The position numbers and the translations under genes were made by a program. A stretch of 64,000 bases of DNA from Planctomycetota bacterium (lineage in GTDB: Bacteria > Planctomycetota > UBA1135 > GCA-002686595). Shown piece after piece: positions 9,158 through 25,278 of this stretch (its first letter is position 1; every line of letters starts with the position of its first letter). Location: positions 8,886 to 72,885 of the forward strand of contig VGZD01000003.1 of assembly GCA_016872715.1 (NCBI GenBank), given 5' to 3'. The notes below the pieces were generated by a model. The model was given only the letters and a program-made list of their open reading frames with translations. It was not told the origin of the DNA and did no database searches.

Positions 9158-9244
9158 TTCGTCCAGCGAGTGAGCGCGAGACCCCCATCGTCGACGGCCG
9201 CGGCGGTGCGGTGGGCGTGGAGCCTCGCGCCCGCCTCGCTCGGA

Positions 9245-10018
9245 CTAGCGCAGCGCGTCCTCGAGGGCCGTGGCGCGATCCGTGCGCTCGTCGCGGTACT
9301 TCACGATCAGGGCGCAGGCCACGTGCAAGTGCCGCCCGGCGGCCCACTCGTCGCTCGCGGGCCGCGATCCGGGCACGACCACGGCGTACTCGGGGATCTC
9401 GAGCGGCCGCTCGCGCGTGCCGCGCAGCTCGCGGCGATTCGGCAGGTCGTACACGACGGTGCTCGCGGAGAGCACGACGCCCGACGCGAGCACCGCGCCG
9501 CGCCGCACGAGCACGCCCTCGTAGAGCCCCGTGTTGCCGCCGACGAAGGCCTCGTCCTCGATGATCACGGGGCGCGCGCCGGCGGGCTCGAGCACGCCAC
9601 CGACCTGACAGCCCGCCGAGAGGTGCACGCGCTTGCCGACCTGCGCGCACGAGCCGACGAGCGCGTGACTGTCGATCATCGAGCCCTCGTCGACGAAGGC
9701 GCCGACGTTCACGTAGGCGGGCGGCATCACGATCACGCCCGGAGCGAGAAACGCGCCGCGGCGCACGGACGAGCCGCCGGGCACGACGCGCAGCTTGTCC
9801 GCGAGCGAAAACGTGCGCGGGCCGATGTCGCGCTTGTCGACGAACGTGAGCGCGCCGGCGGAACTCTCCGCGAGCGGCGAGGCGCGGAAGAGCGCGAGAA
9901 TCTCCTCCTTCACCCACGCGTTCACCGTCCAAGCGCCGTCGGCGCCCCGCTCGGCGACACGCACGCGACCCTGCTCGAGCGCATCGAGCAACGCCGCATT
10001 GGCGAGGCGCTCGCTCAC
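9245..10018 (-). CDS. dapD: 2,3,4,5-tetrahydropyridine-2,6-dicarboxylate N-succinyltransferase
   Basis: GTG at 10018 in ORF 9245..10774. The left-handed beta-helix hexapeptide region 'VMPPAYVNVGAFVDEGSMIDSHALVGSCAQVGKRVHLSAGCQVGGVLEP...IIEDEAFVG' is nearly colinear with classical DapD. Confidence 0.9.
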   Translation of the reverse strand: MSERLANAALLDALEQGRVRVAERGADGAWTVNAWVKEEILALFRASPLAESSAGALTFVDKRDIGPRTFSLADKLRVVPGGSSVRRGAFLAPGVIVMPPAYVNVGAFVDEGSMIDSHALVGSCAQVGKRVHLSAGCQVGGVLEPAGARPVIIEDEAFVGGNTGLYEGVLVRRGAVLASGVVLSASTVVYDLPNRRELRGTRERPLEIPEYAVVVPGSRPASDEWAAGRHLHVACALIVKYRDERTDRATALEDALR

Positions 10019-11031
10019 GCGCAAGCCTCCGCGCGCGCGAGCAGCTCGCGCGCCGTCGACTCGTAGTCGGCGACCGCCTGCTCGAACGAGCGTTTGGTCA
10101 CGAGCTCGTGATCGGTGTGCGCATCGAGGATGCGGCCGGGCCCGTAGAGCAGCGGCTTGCCCCAGCGGCCGAGGTGCGGCGCGTCGGTGCCAAATGCGAC
10201 GGGGATCGGCTCGTGCCCGCGCGGAACCTCGAATTCGATGGGCCCGTAGCTCTTGTAGGGCCGCTGGAGCGCAACATGGGGCGAGAGACACGCGCACAGC
10301 TTGCGCTCGGTGGCCTCGACGGGCTCGACCGCGCGCAGGAGCACGCTCGCGACGGCGCGATCCGCGACGACGTTCGCCGCGACGCCCCCTTGGATGGTGC
10401 CGATGTTGAGCGTGCCCGGCCCGAGCAACGCGTGGCGGCCCCAGTCTTGCGCGAGCAGCTTCTCGATCGCGTGCACGAGCTCGTGGATCGCGCTCGGCCC
10501 GATGTTCTGCGAGCTGTGCCCCGCGACGCCGCTGGCGACGAGCTCGGCCTTGTAGACGCCCTTGTGCGCGCCCGCGAAGCGATTTTCCGTCGGCTCGCCG
10601 ACGATCGTGAAGGCCGGACGCCACGGCTCCGCGAGTTGCGCGTTGGCGAGCGCCGCACCGGCCGAGTCCGTCTCCTCGCCGCACGTGAACAGAAACCCGA
10701 TGCGGTCCTCGCCTCGGTCGAGCAGCCTGCGCGCGGCTTGGATCATCGCGAGCGCCGGTCCCTTGGCATCGCACGAACCGCGCCCGTGCACGGCCTCGCG
10801 GTCCTCGCGCGGTCCGAAGAACGGCGGAACCGTGTCGAGGTGCGTGCAGAACACGACGCGCGGACGAGCGCCGCGGGCGAGCACGTTGAAGCGGCCGGGA
10901 GCGAGCTCCTGCCGCTCGACTCCGAGCCCTAGAGCGGCAAGTTCACGCGAGAGCGCGTCGGCGTAGTCCCGCTCGTCCCCCGTCACCGACGCTATCGCCA
11001 CCAGATCGCACAGCTTCTTGAAGATGTCCAC
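10015..11031 (-). CDS. M20-family metallopeptidase (DapE / ArgE-like deacylase)
   Basis: GTG at 11031 in ORF 10015..12174. Motifs 'FCTHLDTVPP', 'GRGSCDAKG' and 'TCGEETDSAG' are M20 metal-ligand motifs. The gene shares a 4-nt GTGA overlap with the dapD start. Confidence 0.8.
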   Translation of the reverse strand: MDIFKKLCDLVAIASVTGDERDYADALSRELAALGLGVERQELAPGRFNVLARGARPRVVFCTHLDTVPPFFGPREDREAVHGRGSCDAKGPALAMIQAARRLLDRGEDRIGFLFTCGEETDSAGAALANAQLAEPWRPAFTIVGEPTENRFAGAHKGVYKAELVASGVAGHSSQNIGPSAIHELVHAIEKLLAQDWGRHALLGPGTLNIGTIQGGVAANVVADRAVASVLLRAVEPVEATERKLCACLSPHVALQRPYKSYGPIEFEVPRGHEPIPVAFGTDAPHLGRWGKPLLYGPGRILDAHTDHELVTKRSFEQAVADYESTARELLARAEACA

Positions 11032-11139
11032 GTCGCGAATACTAGCAGCGCCGCCGCGCGCGGAGTTCGCGGCGCCACCGCAGCGATTTCCGCTCGTCGC
11101 GGCTCGGGTGCCCGCGCAGCAGGCCGTAGGCTGGGCACC

Positions 11140-12450
11140 ATGCAAGCGGGCCCCAAGCTCGGGCTGCTCTCCGGCGTCGGCCTCGTCGCATCGAGCATGA
11201 TCGGCGTCGGCGTGCTCGTGTCCGCCGGCTGGGCGGCGAGCGTGCTCGGCCCGGGCGAGATACTGATGACGTGGCTCGTCGGTGGAGCGATCGCGCTGTG
11301 CGGCGCGCGCGCCTACGCGGAACTCGCGCTGCTCGTGCCGCGCTCGGGCGGCGAATACCGCTACCTCGCGGATCTGCTGCACCCCGCGCTGGGAGAGCTC
11401 GCGGGCTGGGCCTCGCTGTTCCTCGGCTTCGCGGCGCCGATCGCGTTCTGCGCGGCCATGGCCGATGCGTACGCGGGCACGCTCGTGGAATTGCCTCCGC
11501 ACGCTGTCGGAGCGTCGATCGTGGTCGCGACGACGGCTCTCGGCGCGCTCTCCGCGCGCGCCAGTCAGCGCGTGCAGGACGCGCTCGCGCTCGCGAAGGT
11601 CCTGCTGTTCGCGCTGTTCCTCGCGGTCGGCCTGTGCTGGGGCTCGAGCGCGTGGCCGACATGGCAGCCGCAAACCCCGCACACCGGCTTCCCGACCGGG
11701 AGCTTCTTCGCGCAACTGCTGTGGGTCGCGCTGGCCTACACCGGCTGGAACACGGCGAGCTACGTGAGCGAGGAGTTCCGCGAGCCGCGCCGCGACGTTC
11801 CGCGCGCGATGCTGCTCGGCACGGTGCTCGTGATGGCGCTCTACCTCGCGGTCAACTGGGTGTTCGTCGCCAACCTCGACGCGAGCATGCTGGCGGCGTG
11901 GCGCGCGGTGGACGGCGAGAGCGCGCGCACGACGCTGGCGCACCTCGTCGTGCGCGAACTCGCTGGCCCGCGCGGCGCGGCCGCGATGTCGGCCTTCGTG
12001 GTGCTGGCGATGCTCTCCTCCGCGAGCGCCTTCACCGTCGCCGGACCGCGCGTCTACTCGGCGATGGCGAGCGATGGAGCGCTGCCGAAGCTGCTCGCGG
12101 CCCGCAGCGGAGCGACGAGCGTGGCGTCGACGCTGCTCCAAGGCGCGGTCGCCCTCGCGCTGCTGCTCACGCACTCGTTCGACTTGCTGGTCGAGAACTG
12201 CGGCGCCGTGCTCACCTTCACGACCGCGCTCGCCGCGCTCTCGCTGCTGCGCGTGCGCTTTTCGCCGCCCGCGGCGCTCGCCGCGACGCGCGTGGGAGCG
12301 TTCCCAACCGCCTGCGCCGCGCTCTATTTCCTCGCCTCGGTCTGGACGCTGTGGGCCGCCGCGCTCGAGCGACCGTCGCGACTGGCGTGGATCGCGAGCC
12401 TGTGCGCGGCCGCGCTCGCCGCCTACGCGCTTCGCCGCCGAGTGCGCTGA
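11140..12450 (+). CDS. APC-superfamily amino-acid permease
   Basis: 436-aa polytopic ORF. 'GVGLVASSMIGVGVL', 'AYAELALLVPRSGGEYRY' and 'GWNTASYVSEEF' are typical APC motifs. Confidence 0.8.
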   Translation: MQAGPKLGLLSGVGLVASSMIGVGVLVSAGWAASVLGPGEILMTWLVGGAIALCGARAYAELALLVPRSGGEYRYLADLLHPALGELAGWASLFLGFAAPIAFCAAMADAYAGTLVELPPHAVGASIVVATTALGALSARASQRVQDALALAKVLLFALFLAVGLCWGSSAWPTWQPQTPHTGFPTGSFFAQLLWVALAYTGWNTASYVSEEFREPRRDVPRAMLLGTVLVMALYLAVNWVFVANLDASMLAAWRAVDGESARTTLAHLVVRELAGPRGAAAMSAFVVLAMLSSASAFTVAGPRVYSAMASDGALPKLLAARSGATSVASTLLQGAVALALLLTHSFDLLVENCGAVLTFTTALAALSLLRVRFSPPAALAATRVGAFPTACAALYFLASVWTLWAAALERPSRLAWIASLCAAALAAYALRRRVR

Positions 12451-12972: not shown

Positions 12973-14495
12973 TGGGCAGCTCCGGTGCTCGCGCCGACGT
13001 GCGGCGGATAGGGCGAGAGGCTCGCGCGACTGCGCGACGACCACGCGAGCCGATCCGCGGCGCTGGTGTGGAGCGCCTTGCGCTGCATGAGCCGGTGTCG
13101 GTGGATCGCCGCAGCGACGGCGACGAGCACGTCCTCGCCCGCGCGCGGCGTCGCGAGGTCCATGTGCGCGAGGAAGTGCGTGTCGAACTCGCCCTTGACG
13201 AACTTTTCCTCCTCGAGCACGAGCAGCGCGACCGGCGCGCTGGTGCGCACGCCGCCGACGTTGAGCTCCGCGAGCGCGCGCTTCATGCGCTCGATCGCGG
13301 CGTTGCGATCGGGCCCCCACACGATCAGCTTGGCGAGCATCGGGTCGTAGTTGAGGCTGACCTCCATGCCGCGGTAGATGGCGGCGTCGAGGCGCACCCA
13401 CGGGCCGCCGGGCGCGCGCAGGTTGTGGATCGTGCCGATCGAGGGCACGAAGCCGTTGAACGGGTCTTCGGCGTTGATGCGCACCTCGATCGACCAGCCG
13501 TTCTTCTTCGCGAGCACCTCGTCCTGCGTGTAGCCGAGCTTCTCGCCCCACGCCACGCGGATCTGTTCGCGCACGAGATCGACGCCGTAGACCATCTCGG
13601 TCACCGGGTGCTCGACCTGCAGGCGCGTGTTCATCTCGAGGAAGAACACCTCGCCCTTCGAATAGAGGAACTCGACCGTGCCCGCGTTCTGGTAACCCAC
13701 GGCCGCGCCCGCCCGCACCGCGATCTCGCCCATCTTGCGGCGCAGCGCGTCATCGACGACCACGCTGGGCGCTTCCTCGATCAGCTTCTGGTGGCGGCGC
13801 TGGATCGAGCACTCGCGCTCGCCGTAGTGCACGCCGTTGCCGTGCTTGTCGAACAGCACCTGCACCTCGACGTGGCGCGGCTCGTCGACATAGCGCTCCA
13901 TGTAGAGCCGTCCGTCGCCGAAGCTCGCGAGCGCCTCGCCGCTCGCCGTGCGGAACGCGGTCGCCATCTCGCCCTTCGAGCGCACGAGGCGAATGCCCTT
14001 GCCGCCGCCGCCGGCCGCGGCCTTGAGCGCGATCGGGTAGCCGATCTTCTCGGCCTCCTCGAGCGCGCGCTCGACGTCGTCGACCGGATCGACGAGGCCC
14101 GGCACGACCGGCACCCCGGCCTTGGTCATGTTGCGGCGGCTGGTGATCTTGTCGCCCATGGCCTCGATCGCCTCGGGCGGCGGACCGATCCACACCAGCC
14201 CCGCCTCGGTCACCTTGCGCGCGAAGGCCGAGCGCTCCGACAGGAACCCGTAGCCGGGGTGGATCGCCTCCGCGCCGGACTGCTTGGCCGCGGCGATGAC
14301 CTTGTCCATGTCGAGGTAGCTCTCGCGCGGCGTCGACCCACCGAGCGCCACCGCGCTGTGAGCCATGCGCACGTGCAGCGCACGCCGGTCGACATCGGAG
14401 TAGATGGCGACGGGCTCGATGCCCATCTCCCTGCAGGTGCGGATCACGCGCAGCGCGATCTCGCCCCGATTGGCGATCAAGATACGTCGAAACAT
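12969..14495 (-). CDS. accC: Biotin carboxylase subunit of an acyl-CoA carboxylase, with a C-terminal extension of about 60 aa
   Basis: ATG at 14495 in ORF 12969..14861. 'MFRRILIANRGEIALRVIRTCREMGI' and the ATP-grasp core 'GYPIALKAAAGGGGKGIR' and 'EMNTRLQVEHPVTE'. Confidence 0.9.
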   Translation of the reverse strand: MFRRILIANRGEIALRVIRTCREMGIEPVAIYSDVDRRALHVRMAHSAVALGGSTPRESYLDMDKVIAAAKQSGAEAIHPGYGFLSERSAFARKVTEAGLVWIGPPPEAIEAMGDKITSRRNMTKAGVPVVPGLVDPVDDVERALEEAEKIGYPIALKAAAGGGGKGIRLVRSKGEMATAFRTASGEALASFGDGRLYMERYVDEPRHVEVQVLFDKHGNGVHYGERECSIQRRHQKLIEEAPSVVVDDALRRKMGEIAVRAGAAVGYQNAGTVEFLYSKGEVFFLEMNTRLQVEHPVTEMVYGVDLVREQIRVAWGEKLGYTQDEVLAKKNGWSIEVRINAEDPFNGFVPSIGTIHNLRAPGGPWVRLDAAIYRGMEVSLNYDPMLAKLIVWGPDRNAAIERMKRALAELNVGGVRTSAPVALLVLEEEKFVKGEFDTHFLAHMDLATPRAGEDVLVAVAAAIHRHRLMQRKALHTSAADRLAWSSRSRASLSPYPPHVGASTGAAQ

Positions 14496-14625
14496 GGGGC
14501 GCCGATTGTACGCACCGCGCGCCCCACCCCCTCGCGGGCAGGGGCAGGACGCACAGGGGGGGGCGGCGGAGGTTGCTAGGCTCGTTTGGGTCCCGCCGGA
14601 GAGGGGCGAAAAGGAGTCGGTTGGC

Positions 14626-15108
14626 GTGAGGACTTTGCTGCGTCGCGCGTTCTTTGGCTCGCTCGTCGCGTTCGGCCTGATCCAGCTCGTGCCGTATGGG
14701 CGCGGCGAAGTCGATCCGCCGGTGACGAAGGAGCCGAGCTGGGACAGCCCGCGCACCCGCGAGCTCGCCGTGCGAGCCTGCTTCGACTGCCACAGCCGCA
14801 CGCCGCGGCGCCCGTGGTATGCGCGTGTGGCGCCCGTGAGCTGGCTCGTGCGCCACGACATCGAGGAAGGTCGCGAACACCTCGACTTTTCCGCGTGGGA
14901 CCAGCCGCAGCGCGACGCCCACGAGGCGGGCGAGACGATCGAGGAAGGCGAGATGCCGCCTTGGTTCTACTCGCCGCTGCACCCCGAGGCGCGGCTGTCG
15001 GAGAGCGAGCGGGACGAGCTCGTCCGCGGGCTGCGGGCGAGCCTCGCCGACGCGCTCCGACCGGCTCGACGCGGCGCTCGCGAGCGGCGCGAGCGCGACG
15101 AGAAGTGA
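14626..15108 (+). CDS. Haem-binding-domain (Haem_bd-like) membrane-anchored protein
   Basis: GTG at 14626 is preceded by 'aaggag' 9 nt upstream. It has an N-terminal TM segment and a 'CFDCHS....PWYARVAPVSWLV' CXXCH-containing motif. Confidence 0.6.
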   Translation: MRTLLRRAFFGSLVAFGLIQLVPYGRGEVDPPVTKEPSWDSPRTRELAVRACFDCHSRTPRRPWYARVAPVSWLVRHDIEEGREHLDFSAWDQPQRDAHEAGETIEEGEMPPWFYSPLHPEARLSESERDELVRGLRASLADALRPARRGARERRERDEK

Positions 15109-15271
15109 GCGAGCGAGCGCGAGCGCGCGTGAGGTTAGTTCGGAAAAGGGGTCGACGAAGCTCTTCCGTGCAGGGTAGATTTGCGCCCGTCCGTCGGCGC
15201 GTGCCCGCGCAGCTCCCCCCACCCACGAGCTGCCGAGGCCCCGCTCGAGCGGATCCCTCAAGGACCCCCAC

Positions 15272-16609
15272 ATGCCCGTCTCCGTCGACCCCGCAGCGCA
15301 GCGCGCTGCGACGACTCCGGACCTTCCGCCAGCTACGAACATCGGCCGCCGCACCGGCCGCGCGTTCTTCTACCCCGACGTCAGCGACGGGGAGTGGAAC
15401 GACTGGAAGTGGCAGTTCAAGAACCGCGTCACGACGCTCGAGCAGCTCGTCGCGAAGCTGCCGATCCCGCAGCAGGAGCTCGGCCGGCGCCGCGAGGTGC
15501 TGTCCGATTTCCGCATGGGCATCACGCCCTACTACCTGTCGCTGATCGACGCCGATGACGAGGCGGATCCGATCCTCAGGCAGGTGGTGCCGCTGTCGGA
15601 CGAGTACTACTTCCGCGCCGTCGGCGAGGAAGATCCGCTCGGCGAGGAGAAGTTCTCGCCCGTTCCGGGCATCACGCATCGCTATCCCGACCGCGTGCTG
15701 ATGGTGATCTCGAACAACTGCGCCATCTACTGCCGCTACTGCACGCGCAAGCGGACCATGTACGACGGCGCCACGCCGGACATCGAGATCGACCGCATGG
15801 TCGACTACATCGCGCGCACCCCGCAGGTGCGCGACGTGGTCGTGTCCGGCGGCGACCCGCTCAACTACTCGACCCAGAAGCTCGAGTCCATCCTCTCGAA
15901 GCTGCGCGCCATCCCGCACTTGGAGATCATCCGCATCGGCAGCCGCGTGCCCGTGGCGCTCCCCCAGCGCATCGACGACGAGCTGGTGGAGATGCTGCAG
16001 CGCTACCACCCGCTGTGGATCAACGTGCACTTCAACCACCCGCGCGAGCTCACTGGGGAAGCCGCGCGCGCCTGCGACAAGCTCTCGCGCGCCGGGATCC
16101 CGCTCAACAACCAAGCCGTGCTGCTCAAGGGCGTCAACGACTCGGTCGAGACCGTCAAGTCGCTGTGCCAAGGCCTGATGAAGATGCGCGTGCGGCCGTA
16201 CTACCTCTACCAGTGCGACCCGGTGCGCGGCGCCGAGCACTTCCGCACCCCGATCTCCAAGGGCATCGAGATCATCGAGGGTCTGCGCGGGCACACCAGC
16301 GGGCTCGCCATTCCGACCTACGTGGTCGACGCCCCCGGCGGCGGCGGCAAGATCCCGATCCAGCCGCAGTACCTGCTGCGCTACGACGAGGCGAAGGGGC
16401 GCGCGGTGCTGCGCAACTTCCAAGACAAGATCTACGAGTACCTCGAGCCGGGCTACCTGCGCGACGAGATCCGTCCGCCGACGCCGCGTCCGCAGGAAGC
16501 CGAGCCACGCGGAGCCGAGTCCGCGCCGACGAGCGAGGTCAAGCCGCCGGTGGTCGGGAAGAGCCGCTGGGTCCGCAGGGGCGCGACAGCGCGGCGCGAG
16601 AAGAAGTAG
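15272..16609 (+). CDS. kamA: Lysine 2,3-aminomutase (radical SAM / PLP)
   Basis: 445-aa ORF colinear with clostridial KAM. Motifs: 'WNDWKWQFKNR', the radical-SAM 'CAIYCRYC', 'YQCD', and 'VVDAPGGGGK' (PLP Lys). Confidence 0.9.
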   Translation: MPVSVDPAAQRAATTPDLPPATNIGRRTGRAFFYPDVSDGEWNDWKWQFKNRVTTLEQLVAKLPIPQQELGRRREVLSDFRMGITPYYLSLIDADDEADPILRQVVPLSDEYYFRAVGEEDPLGEEKFSPVPGITHRYPDRVLMVISNNCAIYCRYCTRKRTMYDGATPDIEIDRMVDYIARTPQVRDVVVSGGDPLNYSTQKLESILSKLRAIPHLEIIRIGSRVPVALPQRIDDELVEMLQRYHPLWINVHFNHPRELTGEAARACDKLSRAGIPLNNQAVLLKGVNDSVETVKSLCQGLMKMRVRPYYLYQCDPVRGAEHFRTPISKGIEIIEGLRGHTSGLAIPTYVVDAPGGGGKIPIQPQYLLRYDEAKGRAVLRNFQDKIYEYLEPGYLRDEIRPPTPRPQEAEPRGAESAPTSEVKPPVVGKSRWVRRGATARREKK

Positions 16610-16636
16610 GCTCTCGCGCCCTCACCGGCGCCCCCC

Positions 16637-17662
16637 ATGCACATCGGCATCGCCTTCGACCTCAAGGCGGACTTCCAGTCGGAGTCCGCGCGCGCGCGCG
16701 AAGGTGCGAGCGAGGACCGTCCCGATGACCTCCTCGAGGAATACGACTCGGTCAGCACCGTGGCCGAGATCGAGCGCGTGCTCGCCGCGCGCGGCCACCG
16801 CGTGACGCGCTTGGGTGGCGGACGGCGCTTCGTCGAGAGCCTCCTGCGCGAGCGCGTCGATCTCGTGTTCAACATCGCCGAAGGGCGCGGGTCGCGCTCG
16901 CGCGAGGCGCACGTGCCCGCCGCGTGCGAGATGCTCGGCGTGGCCTGCACGCACTCCGATCCGCTGACCATGGCGGTGACGCTCGACAAGGCCATGGCCA
17001 AGCGCGTGGTCGCGTCCGCGCTCGTGCCGACGCCGGGCTTCGTCGTGGTCGAACGCCCTGCGGACGTGGCGCGCGTCACGTTCCCCTTCCCGCTGTTCGC
17101 CAAGCCGCTGTTCGAGGGCTCGAGCATGGGCATCCGCCGCCGCTCGCGCATCGCGAATCCAGCCGAGCTCGCCGAGCGCGTCGGCGCGTTGCTGCGCGAC
17201 TATGGCGAGCCTGTGCTGGTCGAGGAATTCTGCGCCGGTGCGGAGTTCACCGTCGGCATCCGCGGCCACGGCGAGAGCACGCGCGTGATCGGCACGATGG
17301 AGGTCGAGCCGCTGATCGTGCCGCGCGAGCAGTTCGTCTACTCGCTCGAGGTGAAACGCAATCCGAACTGGGCGGAAGAGATCGCCTACAACGTGCCGCC
17401 CAAGCGCGCGCGGGCCGAGGTCGAGCGCGTCGAGAAGGTCGCGCTCGACGCCTACCGCGCGCTCGGCTGCCGCGACATCGCGCGCATCGACGTGCGCTGC
17501 GACGCCTCGGGCGACCCCAAGTTCATCGAGTGCAACCCGCTGCCGGGCGTCGCGCCGGGCTGGAGCGACCTCGCGATCCTGTGGGACCGCCTCGGCGGCA
17601 CCTACGACACGCTGATCGGCGCGATCCTCGACGAAGCCTGCGCGCGCCTCGAGCTCGCGTGA
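16637..17662 (+). CDS. D-Ala-D-Ala-ligase-like ATP-grasp ligase (paralogue 1)
   Basis: 341-aa ORF. 'LFAKPLFEGSSMGI', 'VEEFCAGAEFTVGI' and 'IARIDVRCDASGDPKFIECNPLPG' are Ddl-type ATP-grasp motifs. Confidence 0.8.
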   Translation: MHIGIAFDLKADFQSESARAREGASEDRPDDLLEEYDSVSTVAEIERVLAARGHRVTRLGGGRRFVESLLRERVDLVFNIAEGRGSRSREAHVPAACEMLGVACTHSDPLTMAVTLDKAMAKRVVASALVPTPGFVVVERPADVARVTFPFPLFAKPLFEGSSMGIRRRSRIANPAELAERVGALLRDYGEPVLVEEFCAGAEFTVGIRGHGESTRVIGTMEVEPLIVPREQFVYSLEVKRNPNWAEEIAYNVPPKRARAEVERVEKVALDAYRALGCRDIARIDVRCDASGDPKFIECNPLPGVAPGWSDLAILWDRLGGTYDTLIGAILDEACARLELA

Positions 17663-17669
17663 GCGATCC

Positions 17670-18683
17670 ATGGCGAGCATCACGGTCCTCTACAACGACG
17701 ACAGCGCGCTCGCGCACGGCTCGGCTCAAGACGCGATCGCCGTGCTCGCGGTGAAGGACTGCGCGCGGGCGATCGCGGAGGCGCTCACGTCGCGCGGGCA
17801 TCGCGCCACGGCCGTGGGCGTGCCGCCGGAGCGCGAGGGCGTGCTGCGCGCCGTCGCTGCCGTGCGCGACGAGCTCGTCTTCAACCTCGTCGAGGGCCTC
17901 GGCGGCGACTCGCGCTTCGAACAAGCCATGGCGTGGCTCTACGAGCTCCACGGCGTGCGCTACACGGGCTCTGGGCCACGCGCCATGGCGCTGTGCATGG
18001 AAAAACCCGTGACGAAGGCGGTGCTCGAAGCAGCGGGGCTGCCGGTGCCGCGCGGGACGGTGCTCGCGCGCGGCGACGAGTCCGTCGCGGGCCTGCGCTT
18101 TCCGCTGATGGTCAAGCCCGCGCGCGAGGACGCGAGCCACGGGATCTCGATCGACTCCCTCGTGCGCGATGAGGCGGCGCTGCGCGCGCAGGCACGGCGA
18201 ATGATCGACACCTACGCGCAACCAGCGCTCGTCGAGGAGTACATCCCCGCGCGCGAGATCAACGTCGCGCTGCTCGGCGGATCGCGCGGCGTCGAGGTGC
18301 TGCCGCTCTCGGAGATCGACTACTCTCTCTTCGCGAGCGACGAGCCGCACCTCGTCACCTACGCGGGCAAGTGGATCGAGGACAGCCGCGACTGGGACCT
18401 CACCAAGGTCATCGCCGCGCGCGACTTGGCGCCGGCGCAGAGCGCGCGCATCGAGAGCGTCGCGCGCGGCGCCTTCGAGACGCTCGAGCTGCGCGACTAC
18501 GCGCGCGTCGACCTGCGGCTCGACGAGCGCGGCGAGCCCTTCATCATCGACGTCAATCCCAATCCCGACATCTCGCCCGGCGCGGGCTTCCACCTCGCGG
18601 CCGAGCGCGCCGGGCTGTCCTACTCCGAACTCGTCGAGCGCGTCGTCCACAGCGCGCTTTCGCGCCATGGCGAAGTTGCGTGA
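17670..18683 (+). CDS. D-Ala-D-Ala-ligase-like ATP-grasp ligase (paralogue 2)
   Basis: 337-aa ORF. Motifs: 'LMVKPAREDASHGI', 'VEEYIPAREINVALLG' and 'YARVDLRLDERGEPFIIDVNPNPD'. Confidence 0.8.
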   Translation: MASITVLYNDDSALAHGSAQDAIAVLAVKDCARAIAEALTSRGHRATAVGVPPEREGVLRAVAAVRDELVFNLVEGLGGDSRFEQAMAWLYELHGVRYTGSGPRAMALCMEKPVTKAVLEAAGLPVPRGTVLARGDESVAGLRFPLMVKPAREDASHGISIDSLVRDEAALRAQARRMIDTYAQPALVEEYIPAREINVALLGGSRGVEVLPLSEIDYSLFASDEPHLVTYAGKWIEDSRDWDLTKVIAARDLAPAQSARIESVARGAFETLELRDYARVDLRLDERGEPFIIDVNPNPDISPGAGFHLAAERAGLSYSELVERVVHSALSRHGEVA

Positions 18684-19137
18684 ACTGCGCGCGAGCGATC
18701 GCGCGGCCCTCGAGCGGATCGTGCGCTCGACGAACGCCTTTCGCGAGGACGAGGTCGAGGTCGCGCTCGAGCTGATCGACGCGGGCGCGCGCGCGGGCTC
18801 TGGCTATCTGTTCACGGTCGCGACCGACGAGCGCGACGAGCCGCAGGGCTACGCCTGCTGGGGGCTGACGCCGCTCACCGATGGCGCCTACGACCTCTAC
18901 TGGATCGTGGTCGACGCGACGCTCCATGGAAGGGGGCTGGGCCGCGCGCTGCTCGACCACGTCGTGCGCGACGTGCGCGCGCGCGCGGGCCGCCTCGTGA
19001 TCATCGAAACGTCGGGCCAGCCCGAGTACGCTGCGCAGCGCACGTTTTACGAACGCTGCGGCTGCGCGCTGCTCGCTCGCTATCCAGACTTCTATCGGCT
19101 CGGCGACGACAAGCTCGTCTACATGGTGCGACTTTGA
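18667..19137 (+). CDS. GNAT-family N-acetyltransferase
   Basis: 156-aa ORF with the acetyl-CoA-binding-type motif 'IVVDATLHGRGLGRALLDHV'. Its start overlaps the preceding ATP-grasp gene by 17 nt. Confidence 0.75.
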   Translation: MAKLRELRASDRAALERIVRSTNAFREDEVEVALELIDAGARAGSGYLFTVATDERDEPQGYACWGLTPLTDGAYDLYWIVVDATLHGRGLGRALLDHVVRDVRARAGRLVIIETSGQPEYAAQRTFYERCGCALLARYPDFYRLGDDKLVYMVRL

Positions 19138-19757
19138 CCCACAAGCCCCTCCCCACGCTCCCGATCCTCGTCGAGAACGCCGCCACGGCAACCTTTGACT
19201 GCGTCTACCCCACCTGCGGCGGCTCGTGCTGCAAGCAAGGCCGTCCGCCCGTCGAGCCGGGCGAGCGCGCGCGCATCGAGGCGAACCTGCCTAAGTTCTT
19301 GCCGCACCTGCGCGCCAAGGCGCGCGCGCTCATCGAGGCGCGTGGCTTCGTGACGCGCCGCAAGAAGCAGGGCAACCCGATGCTCGCGGTGTCCGAGGGC
19401 TGGTGCGTGTTCGAGAACCAAGGCTGCGTGCTGCACAAGGTCGGCGCCAAGGAAGGCGACCGCTTCCAGTACAAGCCGTGGGCCTGCGCGACCTTCCCGC
19501 TCGATCGGCTCGAGAAGACGGACGGCTGGTACGTGCGCCAGTGGAAGCGCCACGGCGAGGCCTGGGACCTCTTCTGCCTCAACCCGAAGGAATCGAAGCA
19601 GCCCGCCGTGAAGACGATGCAAGGCGAGATCGAGTTCGCCGCGCGCTTCGATGCTGGAGAGGAAGCGTGGCGCGGCGGCTCGGTGCCCAAGCCCCCGAGG
19701 AAGGGCGCGGCCAAGAGGAAGCCCGCGCAGGCGAAGAAGCCCGCGGCTCGCAAGTAG
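19134..19757 (+). CDS. DUF3109-like Cys-rich protein with a Lys-rich C-terminal tail
   Basis: TTG start at 19134 (TTGA overlap with the GNAT stop). 'FDCVYPTCGGSCCKQGRPPVEPGE' resembles the DUF3109 / CxxCxxCC cluster. The tail is 'PKPPRKGAAKRKPAQAKKPAARK'. Confidence 0.6.
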   Translation: MTHKPLPTLPILVENAATATFDCVYPTCGGSCCKQGRPPVEPGERARIEANLPKFLPHLRAKARALIEARGFVTRRKKQGNPMLAVSEGWCVFENQGCVLHKVGAKEGDRFQYKPWACATFPLDRLEKTDGWYVRQWKRHGEAWDLFCLNPKESKQPAVKTMQGEIEFAARFDAGEEAWRGGSVPKPPRKGAAKRKPAQAKKPAARK

Positions 19758-19790
19758 GGCGGGAGGAAACGCTCGCGCGCGGCGTCGCAG

Positions 19791-21116
19791 ATGGCAGTGG
19801 AACACGAGCGCGAGTCGCTCGGGCGCGTGCCCGGGGCAGTGTGGCGCGGCACCGCGCTGCAGGTGCTCGGGCGCATGTTCGGCGCGGCCTGCACGCTGGT
19901 GATCCTGTGGCTCGCGAAGGAGGCGCTCGACGGCGCGGACTTCGGCCGCTTCACGTTCTACATCGCGCTGTTCGCTTGGCTCGACAGCATGGCGAACATG
20001 GGCGCCGCTCAGGTGGCGGTGCAGCGCACCGCAGCGGAGGGCGCGCGCATGGCGAACGTGCTCGCGGCCGCGCGAGGGATCCGCGTGCGCGCGGGGCTCT
20101 TCGGCGTGCTCCTGTGCGCGACCTTCGTCCTCTCGCGCGAGGAGGCCGACGGCGCGTGGATCGTGCTCGCCGCGCTGTATCCGGTCACGCACGCGCTCGA
20201 GCTCTCTACGATTCCCGCGCGCAACGCGCTCTCGTGGAGCGTGCCCGTCGCGGTGCGTGCGATCGCGTCGGCGATCAGCCTCGCCAACGTGTTCGCGCTG
20301 CGGCTCGCTGGCGTCGATCGGCCCGCGCTGTACCTGCTCGGCGTGGCGCTCGGGAGCACGCTCGGCAACGTGCTGCTGCACGTCGCGTCGCGGCGCCACT
20401 TGCCGCGCGAGCACGGCGACGCCGCGCGCGAGAGCGGCTTTTTCCGCGAGGCCCTGCCACTGGGGATCTCCGCGTTGTGCGCGCAGACGTACTTCTACGT
20501 CGACAACCTGTTCGTCGAGGCGTGGTGCGGGCTCGAGCCGCTCGGCCACTACAACGTCGCGGTGCGCGTGATGAGCTGGTCGATCATGCTGGCGCAGTAC
20601 ACGACGCTCACCGTGCTCCCGTGGCTGCGGCGCGAGCATCTCGCCGGAGCGCTCGGGCCCTCGCTCGCGCGCCTCGGTCCGCCGCTCTTCGCCGGAGCGG
20701 GATTCGCGTGCGGACTCGCGCTGCCGTGGACCGGCTCGCTGCTCGCGCTGTTCGGCGAGGAATTCCGCGCCGGATCGAACAGCCTGCGTTGGTTGCTCGG
20801 CGCGACGACCGCCATCTACGCCGGCTCGCTCTTCATGACCGCGCTCGTCGCGCTCGGCAAGAACGTCGCGAGCCTGTGGATCGCCGCGCTCGCCGTGCTG
20901 CTCAACATCGGCCTCAACTTCTGGGCCGTACCGGTGCTCGGCATCGACGGCGCCGCGCTCACCACCTGTGCCACGGAGATGTTCGTCGCGCTCGCGGGAG
21001 CAGCCGTGATCCTGCGCGCGGGAGTGAGCCTCGGCAGCCCGTGGCGCTGGCTCGGCGGCCCGCTGTGCATGGCGGCGGGCGCGGGACTGTCTTCCCTGTT
21101 CGCGTTGGGCTATTGA
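19791..21116 (+). CDS. MOP / Wzx-like polysaccharide-biosynthesis flippase
   Basis: 441-aa polytopic ORF. Its N-terminus 'VWRGTALQVLGRMFGAACTLVILWLAKEAL..FGRFTFYIALF' is typical of the polysaccharide-biosynthesis protein family. Confidence 0.7.
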   Translation: MAVEHERESLGRVPGAVWRGTALQVLGRMFGAACTLVILWLAKEALDGADFGRFTFYIALFAWLDSMANMGAAQVAVQRTAAEGARMANVLAAARGIRVRAGLFGVLLCATFVLSREEADGAWIVLAALYPVTHALELSTIPARNALSWSVPVAVRAIASAISLANVFALRLAGVDRPALYLLGVALGSTLGNVLLHVASRRHLPREHGDAARESGFFREALPLGISALCAQTYFYVDNLFVEAWCGLEPLGHYNVAVRVMSWSIMLAQYTTLTVLPWLRREHLAGALGPSLARLGPPLFAGAGFACGLALPWTGSLLALFGEEFRAGSNSLRWLLGATTAIYAGSLFMTALVALGKNVASLWIAALAVLLNIGLNFWAVPVLGIDGAALTTCATEMFVALAGAAVILRAGVSLGSPWRWLGGPLCMAAGAGLSSLFALGY

Positions 21117-21124
21117 GAGCGCCC

Positions 21125-22276
21125 ATGCGCGTCGGACTCGACTATCGCCCCGCTCTACACAACCGCGAGGGCATCGGACGCTACGCGCGCGAGCTCGTGC
21201 GCGGCTTCATCGAGCTCGGCTTCGATGGCGAGCTCGGACTGTTCGGCTACACCGCGGCCGCGATGCGTTTCTCGCGCGAGGAACTCGGCATCGCGGGCAC
21301 GCGCGCGGAGCTCGTGCGAATGCGGCTCCCTTCACGGCTGCTCCCGTGGTTGCTCGCGCGACTGGGCAAGGGCGTCGATGACCTCGTCGGAGGCGCGAGC
21401 GTGTACCACCACACACAGCCCAACCTGCTCGCTGTGCGCAACGCGACGGAAGTCGCGACGATCTTCGACTGCATCTACATGATCCCCGATTCGGGCTACC
21501 TCGATCCGGCCGTGGCCGAGCGCATGACCGCGGCCGCCAAGGAGCAGGTGCGCCGCGCCAAGCGCATCCTCGTGCCCAGCCAGTACGTTGGCGCGGAAGT
21601 CGTGCTCTCGCTCGGCGCGCACCCCGCGCGCGTCGCGGTCACCGAGCTCGGCTGCGACCACATCGCGCGCGCGCTGCCGCCCGAGGGTTTCGGACGCGCG
21701 AAGGAGCCCTACGTGCTCACCGTCTCACGCGTCGACCCGCGCAAGAACCACCTGCGCATGCTGCGGGCGTTCGAGCTGCTCGTAAAGGAGGGTCTCCCCC
21801 ACGGCTGGATCGTCGCCGGTCCGCGCGGTCACGACTGGCAGGAGTTCGCGCGCGCTCTGGAGCGCTCACCGGCGCGCGCGCGCGTGCAGTGGATCGTCGA
21901 TGCGCCCGAAGCGGATCTGCCGCGCCTCTACGCGCAGGCCGATTGCTTGCTCTTCGCGAGCCTCAACGAGGGCTTCGGCCTGCCGCCGCTCGAAGCGATG
22001 GCCTGCGGCACGCCGGTGGTGTCGAGTTGCGTGACTTCGCTGCCGGAAGTGTGCGGCGACGCGGCCTTCCTCGTCGAGCCCACCGACCACGAGCGCATCT
22101 TCGAGGCCACGCGCCGCGTGCTCATGGAGCGCGAGGTCGCCGCCGAGCTGCGCACGCGCGGCCTCGCGCAGTCGCGCAAGTTCACCTGGCGCGAGTGCGC
22201 CAAGCGCACGCTGCTCGCCTACCGCAACGCGCTCGAGCCCGATCCACAGGAGCAAAAGCTCCGGCACGTGTTCTAG
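21125..22276 (+). CDS. Family-1-fold (GT4-like) glycosyltransferase
   Basis: ATG at 21125 in ORF 19403..22276. 'MRVGLDYRP...GIGRYAREL' and the EX7E region 'SLNEGFGLPPLEAMACGTPVV'. Confidence 0.8.
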   Translation: MRVGLDYRPALHNREGIGRYARELVRGFIELGFDGELGLFGYTAAAMRFSREELGIAGTRAELVRMRLPSRLLPWLLARLGKGVDDLVGGASVYHHTQPNLLAVRNATEVATIFDCIYMIPDSGYLDPAVAERMTAAAKEQVRRAKRILVPSQYVGAEVVLSLGAHPARVAVTELGCDHIARALPPEGFGRAKEPYVLTVSRVDPRKNHLRMLRAFELLVKEGLPHGWIVAGPRGHDWQEFARALERSPARARVQWIVDAPEADLPRLYAQADCLLFASLNEGFGLPPLEAMACGTPVVSSCVTSLPEVCGDAAFLVEPTDHERIFEATRRVLMEREVAAELRTRGLAQSRKFTWRECAKRTLLAYRNALEPDPQEQKLRHVF

Positions 22277-22401
22277 GGCGACGCGAGTCGAGCGCGGACG
22301 GCGGCTTCGTCGGTGTCGTCGAGCGACCACAGCGCTCGTCCCTCCATGCCGCCAGAAGCGCCGGTGACGGCCACCACCTTGCCTGCCAGCCCCAGTTCCA
22401 T
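22273..22401 (-). pseudogene. Possible remnant of a short-chain dehydrogenase (42 codons)
   Basis: The tail of ORF 22273..23529 reads 'MELGLAGKVVAVTGASGGMEGRALWSLDDTDEAAVRARLASP'. This is an SDR Rossmann 'TGxxxG' start that stops after 42 aa. Confidence 0.25.
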
Positions 22402-22406
22402 GGAAC

Positions 22407-25181
22407 TCAGTGCTTCGCGCTGTCCACGAAGGCCTTGAACCCGGTGTCGAGCGCGTCGCCGCGCTGATAGCCGAGCAATTTCCAGCCCTCGGGCGTGGTC
22501 TGCCCCAAGTAGCGCGCGCGCAGGTATTCGACGACCTTCGCGCGGGGCTCCGGACCCGCGCGGTACATCAGGAAGAACACGAGACTCCCCGCCTGCTCGT
22601 AGAAGATGTGCCGCTCGCTGATGATCATGTTGCCCGACACACCCTCGTTCAGCGGCGGCAATTGGAAGAGCTCGTCGTTGCCGAGTCCGGCGAAGTCCGA
22701 CGCGTTCATGTCGACGAGGCGCTGCGTTGGAAAGAGCTTGGAGAGCGCGCTCGCCTGCTTGCACACGTACGCGCAGGCCGGATCGCGCTGCTGGCGACCC
22801 TTGCGACCATGCACGCGGTCGGCGACAGCCTCCTCGATGAAGCGCGCGGTGCCTTCGACGATCCAGTAGCCGGGCAGATTGCTGCCCTCGGGCTCGCGCT
22901 TGGTGCCCTTGGCGAGCCATGCGACATCGAGGTAGTGATGCGTGAGCTCGTGCGACACGACCGAGAACACGCCTCGGCCGTAGGGATCCTGTGCTTCCGC
23001 GCCGCTGGGCACGTAGAAACGGGAAATGCCGCCGGAGTAAAGGCCCGCGCTCCACTCCGGCGGGCGTCCGCCGCCCGCGGGCTCGGCGAGGTACTCGTCG
23101 CGCGTCGCGAACAGGCGCACCTGCAGCGGCTGCGTGAAGGTGTCCGGATCCGGCGGCAGGAGCTCGCGCAGCGTGCGGATCGCGAACTCGGCGGCATCGA
23201 GGCAGTCGCCGACGATGCCCGGATCCGTCGGCCGCGAGCACAAGGTCACGTTCTTCGTGCGCAGGATGATCACGCCGTCTTTCCACGCACCGCCGGTCAG
23301 CACGCGATACAGGCGATCCTCGCGCGGCACGAAGAACGCGCCCGTGCGCACGAGGCGCGGTGCCCACGCCGCCCAGCGCGCGACGGCCTCGGGGCTCTCT
23401 TTCCAAGGAAAGTCCGCGGGGATCAGCGGCGCCACCGCGGCGTCGGGTTTGCCCTCGAGCGGCGAACGCTCGGCGCCCTCGATCAGCAGCAGCGAAGCCG
23501 TGAGGCGCAGCTCGTGCGCGGAGCACCACGCGGCCGCCGCGCCGTAGGCCGCGCGCGAGAGCTTGCGCAGCTCGAGCTCCTTGCCCAGCGGCGCCTTACG
23601 CAGCGCTTCCTTGTTCGACTTGTCGTTGGGCTTGAGCGCCTTCACCTTCGCCTCGAGCTCCGCGAGCTTGGCGCTCGAGAGCCCGCAGTCCTTCGCCTCG
23701 GCGAACAAGCGCTTGCAGTCCTCGTCGAGCCGAGACTTGTGAAACAGCTCGAACGCCTCGACCACGCGCGCGACGTGCTCGGACTCCAGCGCGGTCTGGA
23801 ACGACTGCAGCACCGGCTCTTCGTCGCCGAGCAGTTGCACGGTCCCATCCTGCTCCACGAGCGCGACGTCGCGTGCCGTGTAACCGTTGGAGCGACCGTC
23901 GTCGCCGTCGACCTTCCAGCCGTCGTCCGTCGCGCTCACCGTTCCGGCGACGTACGACCCGTCGCTCAGCACGACGCCGTTGCCGCCGCCCGGTCGCGGC
24001 AGCGCCGCACTCGCCGCCTCCGCGCTCGCGCCCTTCTTCGGCGCCTTGCCGACGAGCAGCGTGAGCGCGCCCTTCGCATCGGCGACGACGAGGAGCTGAT
24101 CGCCGACCGGATAGGCGCGGCGCTCGGGCGCGAACTTGCTCGACTGCCACAGCACCTTGCCGCTGGTGAGGTCGATCGCGCGCCCGCCCGCGAAGGCCAC
24201 GTCGCGCGCGACGGACACCGGCCCCCTTGCGCCACCATCCGCGGCCAGAATCGTCGCGAGGCTGCCGCTCGCCTCCATCCGCACGAGCGCTCCACTCGCG
24301 TCGAAACCGACCACGCCTCCGCGGACCACCGCGACGCCGCCGACGAACGGGGCGGGCGTCGGCTGGGCGCTCGCTCCGTCCGCGACGAACCACGAGCCGT
24401 CCCCGCGCGCGACGAACCAGCCGCCGACGCCGCTCTCCGGTTGCACGCGAGCGACGCTCGCGAGCGCGAACTGCTCCGCGGGTGCGCTGCCGAGCGCGAT
24501 GCTCCCGCCGCCGATGCGGTTGATCTTGAGCGCGGCCAAGTCATCGAGTTCCGCGAGTTCCAGCGACCAGTCCGTCCCGACGAGCTTGAGGCTCGCGTAG
24601 GCCGGAACGCCCCACGAGCCCCCCAGCCGCAGGCACGCCGGTCCGCGCGTGCCCGCGAACCCGCCGCGCAACTTGCCGCTCTTGGTGGCAAACGCCTTGA
24701 CCGACGTGCCGTCGCCAAACAGCGTGCCCGCGACGACGCGCGGAGCCACCGCGAGCGCCTCGGGGATGCGGCGAACTTCGGTCAGCTTCTTCTTCGCGAA
24801 GTCGACCTCGTACATCACGATCTCGCTGCCGAGCGCGACACCGACTTCGCCCTCCCACGCGAACATGCCGCGCAGCTCGCCCTTGCCCAGCCCCACGGTG
24901 CCCAGCGCCGCCTTGTCGACGAGGTCGAACGCCTTGAGCGTCAGCGCCTCGCCCGACTTCGTGCAGAAGAACAGGGTGCGGTCCCAACTGACCGGCTCGC
25001 CGAACGCCGTGCCGATGTTCGAGCCCGTGCCCGGGTCCGCGCGGATCGGCGCGACATCGACCCACGCACTGGCGAATGCGTTGCCTTGGGCCTGCGTCCA
25101 ACTGCGCTCGGGAATCTCGGTGCGCTGGGCGAGCGCGGACAGGGACAGCGCCGCGAAGGCGAGGAGACGTGCGACTTGCAT
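22407..25181 (-). CDS. Large secreted protein: N-terminal beta-propeller-like region plus a C-terminal HExxH metallopeptidase-like domain
   Basis: ATG at 25181 gives the signal peptide 'MQVARLLAFAALSLSALAQ'. The C-terminal part carries 'VVSHELTHHYLD'. Confidence 0.7.
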   Translation of the reverse strand: MQVARLLAFAALSLSALAQRTEIPERSWTQAQGNAFASAWVDVAPIRADPGTGSNIGTAFGEPVSWDRTLFFCTKSGEALTLKAFDLVDKAALGTVGLGKGELRGMFAWEGEVGVALGSEIVMYEVDFAKKKLTEVRRIPEALAVAPRVVAGTLFGDGTSVKAFATKSGKLRGGFAGTRGPACLRLGGSWGVPAYASLKLVGTDWSLELAELDDLAALKINRIGGGSIALGSAPAEQFALASVARVQPESGVGGWFVARGDGSWFVADGASAQPTPAPFVGGVAVVRGGVVGFDASGALVRMEASGSLATILAADGGARGPVSVARDVAFAGGRAIDLTSGKVLWQSSKFAPERRAYPVGDQLLVVADAKGALTLLVGKAPKKGASAEAASAALPRPGGGNGVVLSDGSYVAGTVSATDDGWKVDGDDGRSNGYTARDVALVEQDGTVQLLGDEEPVLQSFQTALESEHVARVVEAFELFHKSRLDEDCKRLFAEAKDCGLSSAKLAELEAKVKALKPNDKSNKEALRKAPLGKELELRKLSRAAYGAAAAWCSAHELRLTASLLLIEGAERSPLEGKPDAAVAPLIPADFPWKESPEAVARWAAWAPRLVRTGAFFVPREDRLYRVLTGGAWKDGVIILRTKNVTLCSRPTDPGIVGDCLDAAEFAIRTLRELLPPDPDTFTQPLQVRLFATRDEYLAEPAGGGRPPEWSAGLYSGGISRFYVPSGAEAQDPYGRGVFSVVSHELTHHYLDVAWLAKGTKREPEGSNLPGYWIVEGTARFIEEAVADRVHGRKGRQQRDPACAYVCKQASALSKLFPTQRLVDMNASDFAGLGNDELFQLPPLNEGVSGNMIISERHIFYEQAGSLVFFLMYRAGPEPRAKVVEYLRARYLGQTTPEGWKLLGYQRGDALDTGFKAFVDSAKH

Positions 25182-25278
25182 GGCGGAGTGAGACGGTAGC
25201 TCCCGCGCGCGCGGCGCGCCACGCTCGCGCAGCGCCACGGCGCGCAACTGGGGGCCAATCCCGCGTGAATTCGCGCGC

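Follow-up and report, generated by a model that had tools for sequence, protein, structure and literature searches.

A conserved cassette of a lysine 2,3-aminomutase, two Ddl-fold ATP-grasp ligases and an acetyltransferase may make a small beta-lysine-containing amide or peptide

Three fates of beta-lysine are known: the acetyl-beta-lysine osmolyte, the modification of EF-P, and antibiotics made by nonribosomal peptide synthetases. The osmolyte route is encoded by AblA and AblB in methanogens and some bacteria, and the kamA-yodP genes of Bacillus subtilis form a comparable pair. A second kind of small osmolyte, the N-acetylated dipeptide amide NAGGN, is produced by Ngg, a bifunctional GNAT and ATP-grasp enzyme, together with the amidotransferase AsnO. 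Here we describe a locus that combines elements of both. It lies in a 64-kb window (the whole stretch analysed, 64,000 nucleotides of contig VGZD01000003.1) from a Planctomycetota bacterium. A first-pass annotation had described seven plus-strand genes in this window, starting with a lysine 2,3-aminomutase (KamA), two Ddl-like ATP-grasp ligases (AG1 and AG2) and a small GNAT acyltransferase, and had suggested that they build an N-acetylated beta-lysine-containing di- or tri-amide. The first four of these genes form a cassette that recurs in about 12 phyla, and on its composition we lean towards a small beta-lysine-containing amide or peptide as its product.

As far as we found, the cassette is a widespread and apparently uncharacterised combination and not a new category of system. 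As in AblA/AblB, an aminomutase of the KamA/AblA type is found with a GNAT and beta-lysine is the presumed intermediate, but in the cassette two Ddl-fold ligases are placed between the two, and its GNAT is a single domain of 156 aa. The ligases share with Ddl and VanA the three-domain ATP-grasp fold (TM 0.76-0.83) and the residues for ATP, Mg and transition-state binding. In contrast to these enzymes, however, AG1 and AG2 are only 22-31% identical to them and score at about half the model cut-offs; the D-Ala-binding residues are replaced, and the genomic context is KamA and GNAT instead of mur/fts. NAGGN biosynthesis offers an analogy for how a GNAT and ATP-grasp chemistry might together give a capped, N-acetylated small peptide. 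Unlike Ngg, the GNAT and the ligases of the cassette are separate genes; the cassette instead has a pair of ligases and a radical-SAM aminomutase, and no AsnO-type amidotransferase was found in the cassette or its conserved neighbourhood.

Further analogies can be drawn with pathways in which ATP-grasp enzymes ligate amino acids. In the PylB/PylC/PylD route, a radical-SAM rearrangement of lysine is likewise followed by ATP-grasp ligation to another amino acid. PylB is no PLP (pyridoxal phosphate) aminomutase, though, and the cassette has no PylD-like dehydrogenase; no PylC model was among the best 25 of the 33 and 41 families matched by the two ligases, whose best matches were Ddl. Glutathione synthesis (including GshF, the C-terminal half of which is Ddl-like) and carnosine synthase resemble the cassette in using sequential ATP-grasp ligations or ligation of a beta-amino acid. 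This likeness is one of analogy, and the cassette adds an aminomutase and an acetyltransferase. In the EpmA/EpmB system a KamA-family aminomutase also supplies beta-lysine for an amide linkage, but neither an EpmA (LysRS-like) gene nor an efp gene is present in the cassette or among the genes conserved around it. The five proteins encoded by the core and the DUF3109 gene that follows it are covered by no NCBIfam equivalog, and the GT4 glycosyltransferase further downstream is also under every equivalog cut-off. In the open-access full-text literature we found no description of the cassette, although one in a subscription journal is possible. The earlier remark that a characterised pathway with this composition is not known thus agrees with what curated models and open-access papers contain.

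The distribution of the cassette was examined starting from AG1. A profile scan of one genome per GTDB species yielded at least 581 relatives, of which 80 were retrieved for locus analysis. These comprised Chloroflexota/Dehalococcoidia (20), Thermodesulfobacteriota and 'Deltaproteobacteria' (19), Planctomycetota (16), Myxococcota (4), Deferrimicrobiaceae (3), Clostridia (2) and Acidobacteriota (2), and single loci from Actinomycetota, Krumholzibacteriia, Dadabacteria, WOR-3, Lindowbacteria and others. Most carriers are metagenome-assembled genomes (MAGs). Gene presence was scored for each locus by tblastn with the seven window proteins, and the denominators given are assessable loci. The closest AG1 homologues are annotated as Planctomycetota MAGs, and three contigs with AG1 identities of 84%, 60% and 57% all carry KamA, AG1, AG2, GNAT and DUF3109 in the same order. 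After these genes, flippase and GT4 come next in the 84% relative alone; the other two contigs have a B12-binding radical-SAM gene, or two OPT transporters and GT2 genes. The order KamA-AG1-AG2-GNAT recurs in about 12 phyla, including Planctomycetota, Chloroflexota, Thermodesulfobacteriota, Myxococcota, Acidobacteriota and Clostridia. KamA adjoins AG1 in 66 of 75 loci; for the presence of AG2 and GNAT the figures are 63 of 74 and 58 of 72, respectively. The gene for the DUF3109 protein is present in 13 of 63 loci (10/13 in Planctomycetota, 3/4 in Myxococcota, none elsewhere). A flippase and GT4 gene stand beside the cassette only in the 84%-identical contig, L004 and L007, and in every other locus examined the flippase is absent from the downstream position. 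Since these two genes are confined to the nearest relatives, the conserved unit is a four-gene core, KamA-AG1-AG2-GNAT, with DUF3109 as a lineage-specific fifth gene in Planctomycetota and Myxococcota; the flippase and GT4 are local neighbours outside it. The combination of kamA, two ATP-grasp genes and a GNAT gene singled out by the first-pass annotation therefore recurs strongly across phyla, whereas its seven-gene unit does not.

The KamA gene (15272..16609, plus strand) encodes 445 aa with the Pfam domains Radical_SAM and LAM_C. The protein matches the lysine 2,3-aminomutase of Clostridium subterminale (PDB 2A5H) with E=6e-141. All the motifs reported previously are present: CAIYCRYC (residues 150-157), YQCD, VVDAP and GGGGK align to the cluster cysteines, Asp293, Asp330 and Lys337 of 2A5H, and K360, R137, D316 and D353 of the window protein occupy the positions of Lys337, Arg134, Asp293 and Asp330. 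In 2A5H both Asp residues hold the epsilon-ammonium of lysine and the Arg binds the alpha-carboxylate. The CxxxCxxC cysteines and the equivalents of both Asp residues are kept in 69/69 cassette KamAs, the Arg134 equivalent in 67/69 and that of Lys337 in 68/69. When scored against NCBIfam aminomutase models, KamA ranked highest with the lysine model (497 bits), followed by the glutamate (443) and arginine (401) models. Its score of 497.4 bits for the AblA equivalog TIGR03820 is below the cut-off of 525.4; that for the KamA subfamily TIGR00238, 360.5 bits, is above the cut-off of 199.2.

The equivalent of Cys268 is Ser in the window KamA, and the position is variable across the family. As the first reading of the sequence had pointed out, the clostridial zinc cluster is missing from the window protein, which ends instead in a basic, Pro-rich tail of 86 residues. 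A C-terminal Cys cluster corresponding to the clostridial zinc site (CxCxxC) was found in none of the 69 cassette KamAs examined. Judged by its conserved lysine-binding residues and by the lysine model scoring highest, KamA looks like a genuine, beta-lysine-forming lysine 2,3-aminomutase, in line with the original assignment. The same residues, read together with the known structure and function of lysine 2,3-aminomutase, make free L-lysine its most likely substrate.

AG1 (16637..17662, plus strand, 341 aa) and AG2 (17670..18683, plus strand, 337 aa) are paralogous, with 32% identity, and both match Pfam Dala_Dala_lig_C. Public annotation names both D-alanine--D-alanine ligase. The best Ddl model, NF002378 of NCBIfam, gave 136.9 bits for AG1 and 138.5 bits for AG2, compared with a cut-off of 243, and with the remaining Ddl and Van models both proteins fell even further under the cut-off. 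The only solved relatives of the two are Ddl and VanA enzymes. An AlphaFold2 (AF2) model of AG1 (pLDDT 87.7) found Ddl structures as its top Foldseek matches, at TM 0.76-0.83 and 22-26% identity; this predicted model speaks to a Ddl fold and not to the substrate.

To compare the active sites, 83 AG1 and 72 AG2 sequences were aligned with E. coli DdlB, the reference being identical to 1IOV. DdlB residues K97, K144, E180, E187, K215, R255, D257, E270 and N272 are kept in both sets. AG1 in addition retains Glu15 and Ser150, and carries nearly invariant replacements of H63 by E82, of E68 by R89 and of Y216 by R241. In AG2, invariant or nearly so, H63 becomes E75, Y216 becomes W235 and G276 becomes D300; Glu15 is exchanged for Ala in most members and Ser150 for Ala or Gly. 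The Ser281/Leu282 pair of Ddl is kept in neither family. Because the ATP-, Mg- and transition-state residues are all kept, both ligases are probably active. The family-specific invariant residues at Ddl substrate positions, in turn, indicate that AG1 and AG2 are not D-Ala-D-Ala ligases, and the charges added at these positions suggest that the substrates carry additional ammonium and carboxylate groups. The first-pass description of the two proteins as Ddl-like ATP-grasp ligases is thus borne out for the fold, yet with scores below the cut-offs and changed specificity residues they are not ordinary Ddl. A third Ddl-like gene was not found in the 64-kb window, and no mur/fts genes are located near the cassette among the window open reading frames (ORFs) scanned.

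Fusion proteins provide a second line of evidence. A HMMER search with AG1 over 1.84 billion cluster representatives gave 608 clusters (50% identity) at E<=1e-30, and domain architectures were determined for the 151 best representatives. Of these, 88 are stand-alone AG1 and 21 are AG1 with an N-terminal extension, many of the extensions being degenerate ATP-grasp halves. Tandem ATP-grasp fusions account for 37: 18 are AG1+AG2, 12 are AG1 followed by an AG1-like domain and 7 are AG2+AG1, so that AG1 and AG2 are joined in either order in 25/151. Four proteins (P0431, P0461, P0479 and P0484) are KamA+AG1 fusions with Radical_SAM, LAM_C and Dala_Dala_lig_C in one chain, and these keep the cluster cysteines and the equivalents of Arg134, Asp293, Asp330 and Lys337. 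A single divergent protein, P0480, has the arrangement AG1+KamA. No fusion of a GNAT to an ATP-grasp domain occurs among the 151. All fusion proteins are metagenomic gene calls; as the four KamA+AG1 clusters are mutually divergent, an assembly artefact is unlikely. Together, the KamA+AG1 and tandem fusions argue that AG1 acts on the aminomutase product and that the two ligases work together. Among the proteins with N-terminal extensions, P0489 (980 aa) carries its AG1-family domain after a leucine-rich-repeat extension of about 600 residues with F-box/LRR-like Pfam matches, an architecture that looks eukaryote-like or effector-like.

The GNAT gene (18667..19137, plus strand) overlaps AG2 by 17 nt and encodes a small acyltransferase of 156 aa (Pfam Acetyltransf_7/_1). 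Its acetyl-CoA loop, RGLGRA at residues 88-93, has G90 and G92 conserved in at least 90% of 57 family members. Against NCBIfam, the protein had no match to the AblB model TIGR03827 at E<=0.01, and RimI and EctA were weakly matched.

The fifth gene (19134..19757, plus strand) encodes a Cys-rich protein of 207 aa that matches PF11307 (E=1.5e-12), the family formerly called DUF3109 and now Rv0495c, with 48.2 bits, over the gathering cut-off of 33.5. Eight cysteines (C23, C28, C32, C33, C91, C98, C118 and C148) are invariant in 37 homologues. Some JGI records label homologues of the protein (P0236-P0355) 'Fe-S-cluster containing protein'. When the confident AF2 model (pLDDT 82.5) was compared with PDB structures, no fold matched (best E=5.4), and the protein may, to judge by this model, have a new metal-binding fold. 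It is probably a lineage-specific, metal-binding accessory. In the one functional report that was found, a preprint, deletion of the homologue Rv0495c in Mycobacterium tuberculosis results in an oxidised cytosol (10.1101/2023.08.22.554105). For the cassettes of Planctomycetota and Myxococcota, such a Cys-rich partner may hint at a link to redox processes. In P0457 (503 aa), one of the extended AG1 proteins described above, a Cys-rich CxxCxxCC domain (PF03692, YkgJ-type) is fused N-terminal to the AG1-family ligase. The Cys motifs of this domain and of the DUF3109 profile are in register; the profile comparison falls short of significance, however (E=0.0097, probability 4%), and homology is therefore not claimed.

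All seven plus-strand ORFs of the window were confirmed, with gaps of 27, 7, -17, -4, 33 and 8 nt calculated from the coordinates, exactly as first described. At the GNAT/DUF3109 junction (19134-19137) the TTG start of the second gene lies within the TGA stop of the first, giving an overlap of 4 nt. The sixth gene (19791..21116, plus strand) encodes a membrane protein of 441 aa from the MOP/Polysacc_synt family (PF01943, E=2e-12), a flippase or exporter, and the seventh (21125..22276, plus strand) a GT4 glycosyltransferase of 383 aa (Glycos_transf_1, E=7e-28). Direct reading of the sequence at both junctions showed the overlap just described and an ATG at 21125. The window has a G+C content of about 70% throughout, and six of the seven genes show third-position G+C at the very high level that real genes should have; the GT4 gene lies inside a stop-free ORF from 19403, and the third-position filter did not resolve it.

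A sequence scan detected no intrinsic terminator or sigma-70 promoter between the genes above shuffled background, and Rfam models gave no riboswitch or other RNA element in 14000-23000 at E<=1. The next gene downstream (22407-25247, minus strand) is convergent on the GT4 gene. Given the absence of terminator and promoter signals and this convergent neighbour, a single transcript for the seven genes is plausible, and the flippase and GT4 may be co-transcribed with the cassette in the window organism. Of the one-operon proposal, then, the transcriptional part remains plausible, while the seven genes do not form a single conserved unit. The convergent gene is an ORF of 946 aa without a Pfam match, and a counterpart of 926 aa, likewise without a match, has the same position in a close relative. 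About 3 kb upstream of kamA there is an APC-family amino-acid permease (10933-12450, plus strand), which occupies the same relative position in the 84%-identical relative. Elsewhere in the window, an H+-pyrophosphatase is encoded at 34015-36258, and the sole tRNA is Leu-GAG (58215-58299). The segment 48000-54800 (minus strand) has a G+C content of about 0.65-0.67, compared with about 0.70-0.72 in the rest of the window; it holds a protein of 1223 aa with cytochrome c domains, an ORF of 384 aa without a Pfam match and a cytochrome b gene, which probably form a respiratory complex.

The surroundings of the cassette were compared by clustering all ORFs of 84 loci all-against-all; some high-GC ORFs without a Pfam match are possibly spurious. 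In these 84 loci no further conserved enzyme travels with the cassette, the additional genes being regulators, transporters and lineage-specific genes only. An XRE-cupin regulator is found upstream in Deferrimicrobiaceae and relatives. In six loci from deltaproteobacterial MAGs (L030, L033, L034, L043, L059 and L068) AG1 is separated from KamA-AG2 by inserted genes for a sensor histidine kinase, a sigma-54-dependent response regulator and a single-domain receiver (in L034, for example, at 8996-12177), and a PUA/SAM methyltransferase then follows. A Syntrophobacterales locus (L024; 6936-7940 and 10952-12481) has a third ATP-grasp gene, of the RimK family, between KamA and AG1, and an MFS transporter at its end. 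In Dehalococcoidia, the gene after the cassette codes either for a deacetylase of 580 aa (HDAC family, acetylpolyamine-amidohydrolase-like; L063 at 4558-6300, L073 and L078) or for a small NAAT/MarC-family transporter (L053, L057, L064 and L067). Such neighbours may point to a product that is deacetylated or recycled, or else transported.

Reduced and altered forms were also observed. Three loci (L038, L056 and L081) contain KamA and AG1 only. Others have AG1, AG2 and GNAT, with or without DUF3109, but no adjacent KamA. Among them is Sandaracinus amylolyticus DSM 53668 (L084; CP011125, 9990610-10011902), the sole cultured carrier found, with AG1, AG2, GNAT and DUF3109 at about 10,000,610-10,004,453; its AG1 is 430 aa long, with an N-terminal extension of about 95 residues, and a UbiA prenyltransferase gene is located upstream. 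In Planctomycetota, a B12-binding radical-SAM gene may take the downstream position, directly after DUF3109 in L001 (11917-13488) and L009 (8049-9680) and about 1.1-1.4 kb downstream of it in L018 (12712-14442) and L022 (12384-13955). Other members of this phylum have a GT2 gene and a GT2-GT4 fusion (L011), or two OPT genes followed by GT2 and GT2/GT4 (L003). Outside Planctomycetota, the genes downstream of the cassette are unrelated.

Taken together, these data suggest the following pathway, in which the individual chemical steps, their order, the partner substrates and the physiological role are all inferred. KamA would convert free L-lysine to beta-lysine by radical-SAM/PLP chemistry. AG1 would take beta-lysine directly and form a first amide bond via an acyl-phosphate, a role to which the loci with only KamA and AG1 also point. 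The invariant Arg89, Arg241, Glu34 and Glu82 at the substrate positions of AG1 would fit one partner with an extra carboxylate and another with an extra ammonium group. AG2 would then make a second amide bond, and the GNAT would N-acetylate the amine still free. Beta-lysine offers three groups for capping, a carboxylate and two amines, and the two ligases together with the acetyltransferase would match that number exactly. The absence of other conserved biosynthetic genes implies common amino acids or metabolites as partner substrates. One would expect a small di- or tripeptide that contains beta-lysine, is N-acetylated and is uncharged or zwitterionic. It might serve in the cytoplasm, as a compatible solute, another protectant or a buffer, or be exported as a metabolite; in Planctomycetota only, it might be a building block passed on to the assembly of a glycan or lipid. 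The di- or tri-amide envisaged in the first-pass annotation remains the best reading of the sequences, and is reinforced by the KamA+AG1 and AG1+AG2 fusions.

Several observations weigh against this pathway or against particular steps. The substrate assignments are drawn from residue patterns alone. KamA is not adjacent in about 12% of loci, and none lies within 10 kb of the Sandaracinus amylolyticus cassette; by synteny, dependence on beta-lysine is therefore not universal. The GNAT is absent from about 20% of loci, and was not detected in those with the two-component insertion, so acetylation may be optional. Transporters of four families (MOP, OPT, MFS and NAAT/MarC) follow the cassette in some lineages, and an exported product consequently fits at least as well as a cytoplasmic solute. 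Finally, many carriers come from freshwater or groundwater, according to the isolate names in record titles, which does not favour a classical salt osmolyte.

An exported beta-lysine peptide that serves as an antimetabolite, signal or metallophore, with the GNAT in self-protection or tailoring, would account for the four unrelated transporter families directly downstream (MOP in the clade of the window, a pair of OPT genes in L003, MFS in L024, NAAT/MarC in Dehalococcoidia). Tripeptide antimetabolites, phaseolotoxin among them, are assembled by pairs of ATP-grasp ligases, and some GNATs, for instance streptothricin acetyltransferase, confer self-resistance by acetylating beta-lysine moieties. 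We nevertheless consider such a product unlikely. A transporter is found downstream in only about 10 of the roughly 60 loci with downstream sequence; the stable gene order, the roughly phylogeny-tracking identities and the lack of tailoring enzymes are unlike typical secondary-metabolite clusters; and regulators of the NtrC-type/sigma-54 or XRE-cupin kind suggest physiological control. Alternatively, the ligases could join beta-lysine, or a peptide containing it, to a protein, a cell-wall precursor, a glycan or a lipid, with the flippase and GT4 participating in the window organism. Some ATP-grasp enzymes do modify macromolecules, as exemplified by RimK and by D-aspartate ligase acting on peptidoglycan precursors. 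The gap of 33 nt to the flippase, without a terminator, and the three glycosyltransferase architectures that follow the cassette in Planctomycetota (flippase+GT4; GT2 with GT2-GT4; OPT, GT2 and GT2/GT4) are in keeping with this. However, flippase and glycosyltransferase genes are lacking beside the cassette in every other phylum and in the Planctomycetota of the B12-radical-SAM type, the clustered neighbourhoods contain no conserved candidate acceptor protein or carrier gene, and the closest solved relatives of the ligases are all small-molecule ligases. The cassette is, moreover, common in MAGs of Dehalococcoidales, cultured members of which are not known to have peptidoglycan. Decoration of macromolecules in general thus appears distinctly unlikely, and because flippase and GT4 are limited to the nearest relatives, the beta-lysyl decoration of an exported glycan or lipid that the first-pass annotation also considered is reduced to a lineage-specific possibility at most.

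Two simpler explanations keep to described enzyme functions. Were the cassette a plain AblA/AblB-like route to N-epsilon-acetyl-beta-lysine, with the ligases as unrelated passengers, one would expect an aminomutase scoring near the AblA cut-off (497 against 525 bits) and a GNAT gene in the same operon, both of which are seen. The GNAT is without an AblB-model match, however, and is about half the size of AblB; it is missing from about 20% of loci, and the ligases are linked to KamA more tightly than it is, with AG1 in between, KamA+AG1 fusions and loci of KamA and AG1 only. With KamA below the AblA cut-off and no AblB match, we rejected the plain AblAB pathway as very improbable. The other explanation takes AG1 and AG2 as genuine D-Ala-D-Ala (or D-Ala-D-X) ligases of peptidoglycan synthesis that stand beside kamA by chance. 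This would agree with their public annotation, with the fold and catalytic residues, and with the lack of another ddl in the 64-kb window. It is contradicted by scores of about 137-139 bits against cut-offs of at least 243, and by the changes at Tyr216, His63 and Ser281/Leu282 in both ligases, at Glu68 in AG1 and at Glu15 in AG2. Conserved synteny with KamA and fusion to it, the absence of mur/fts genes from the nearby window ORFs scanned and the occurrence of the family in Dehalococcoidales MAGs likewise speak against chance. Genuine Ddl function, which fails on both the score cut-offs and the D-alanine-binding residues, was accordingly rejected and is in our view barely credible. EF-P modification was also rejected: KamA reached 270.2 bits with the EpmB model, below the cut-off of 369.3, and the cassette contains no EpmA-like gene.

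If the cassette does make a small beta-lysine amide or peptide, it would represent a fourth fate of beta-lysine, encoded in hundreds of species of Planctomycetota, Chloroflexota, Thermodesulfobacteriota, Myxococcota and others. More tentatively, and at less than even odds, the product might be a hitherto undescribed N-acetylated beta-lysine di- or tripeptide that acts as a general cytoplasmic protectant of largely uncultured anaerobes in at least 12 phyla. AG1 and AG2 would then be the first ligases of the Ddl fold with specificity for a beta-amino acid, and the protectant could act as a compatible solute or as a buffer in the manner of glutathione or carnosine. With so compact and self-contained a cassette, the question is directly testable. 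Two large families now annotated as 'D-alanine--D-alanine ligase' (608 AG1-matching clusters) would become beta-amino-acid peptide ligases, and their re-annotation would affect cell-wall inferences drawn from the genomes of Planctomycetota and of wall-less Dehalococcoidia. The pathway would also provide ATP-grasp enzymes for beta-peptide bonds and a candidate abundant metabolite of anoxic sediments and groundwater.

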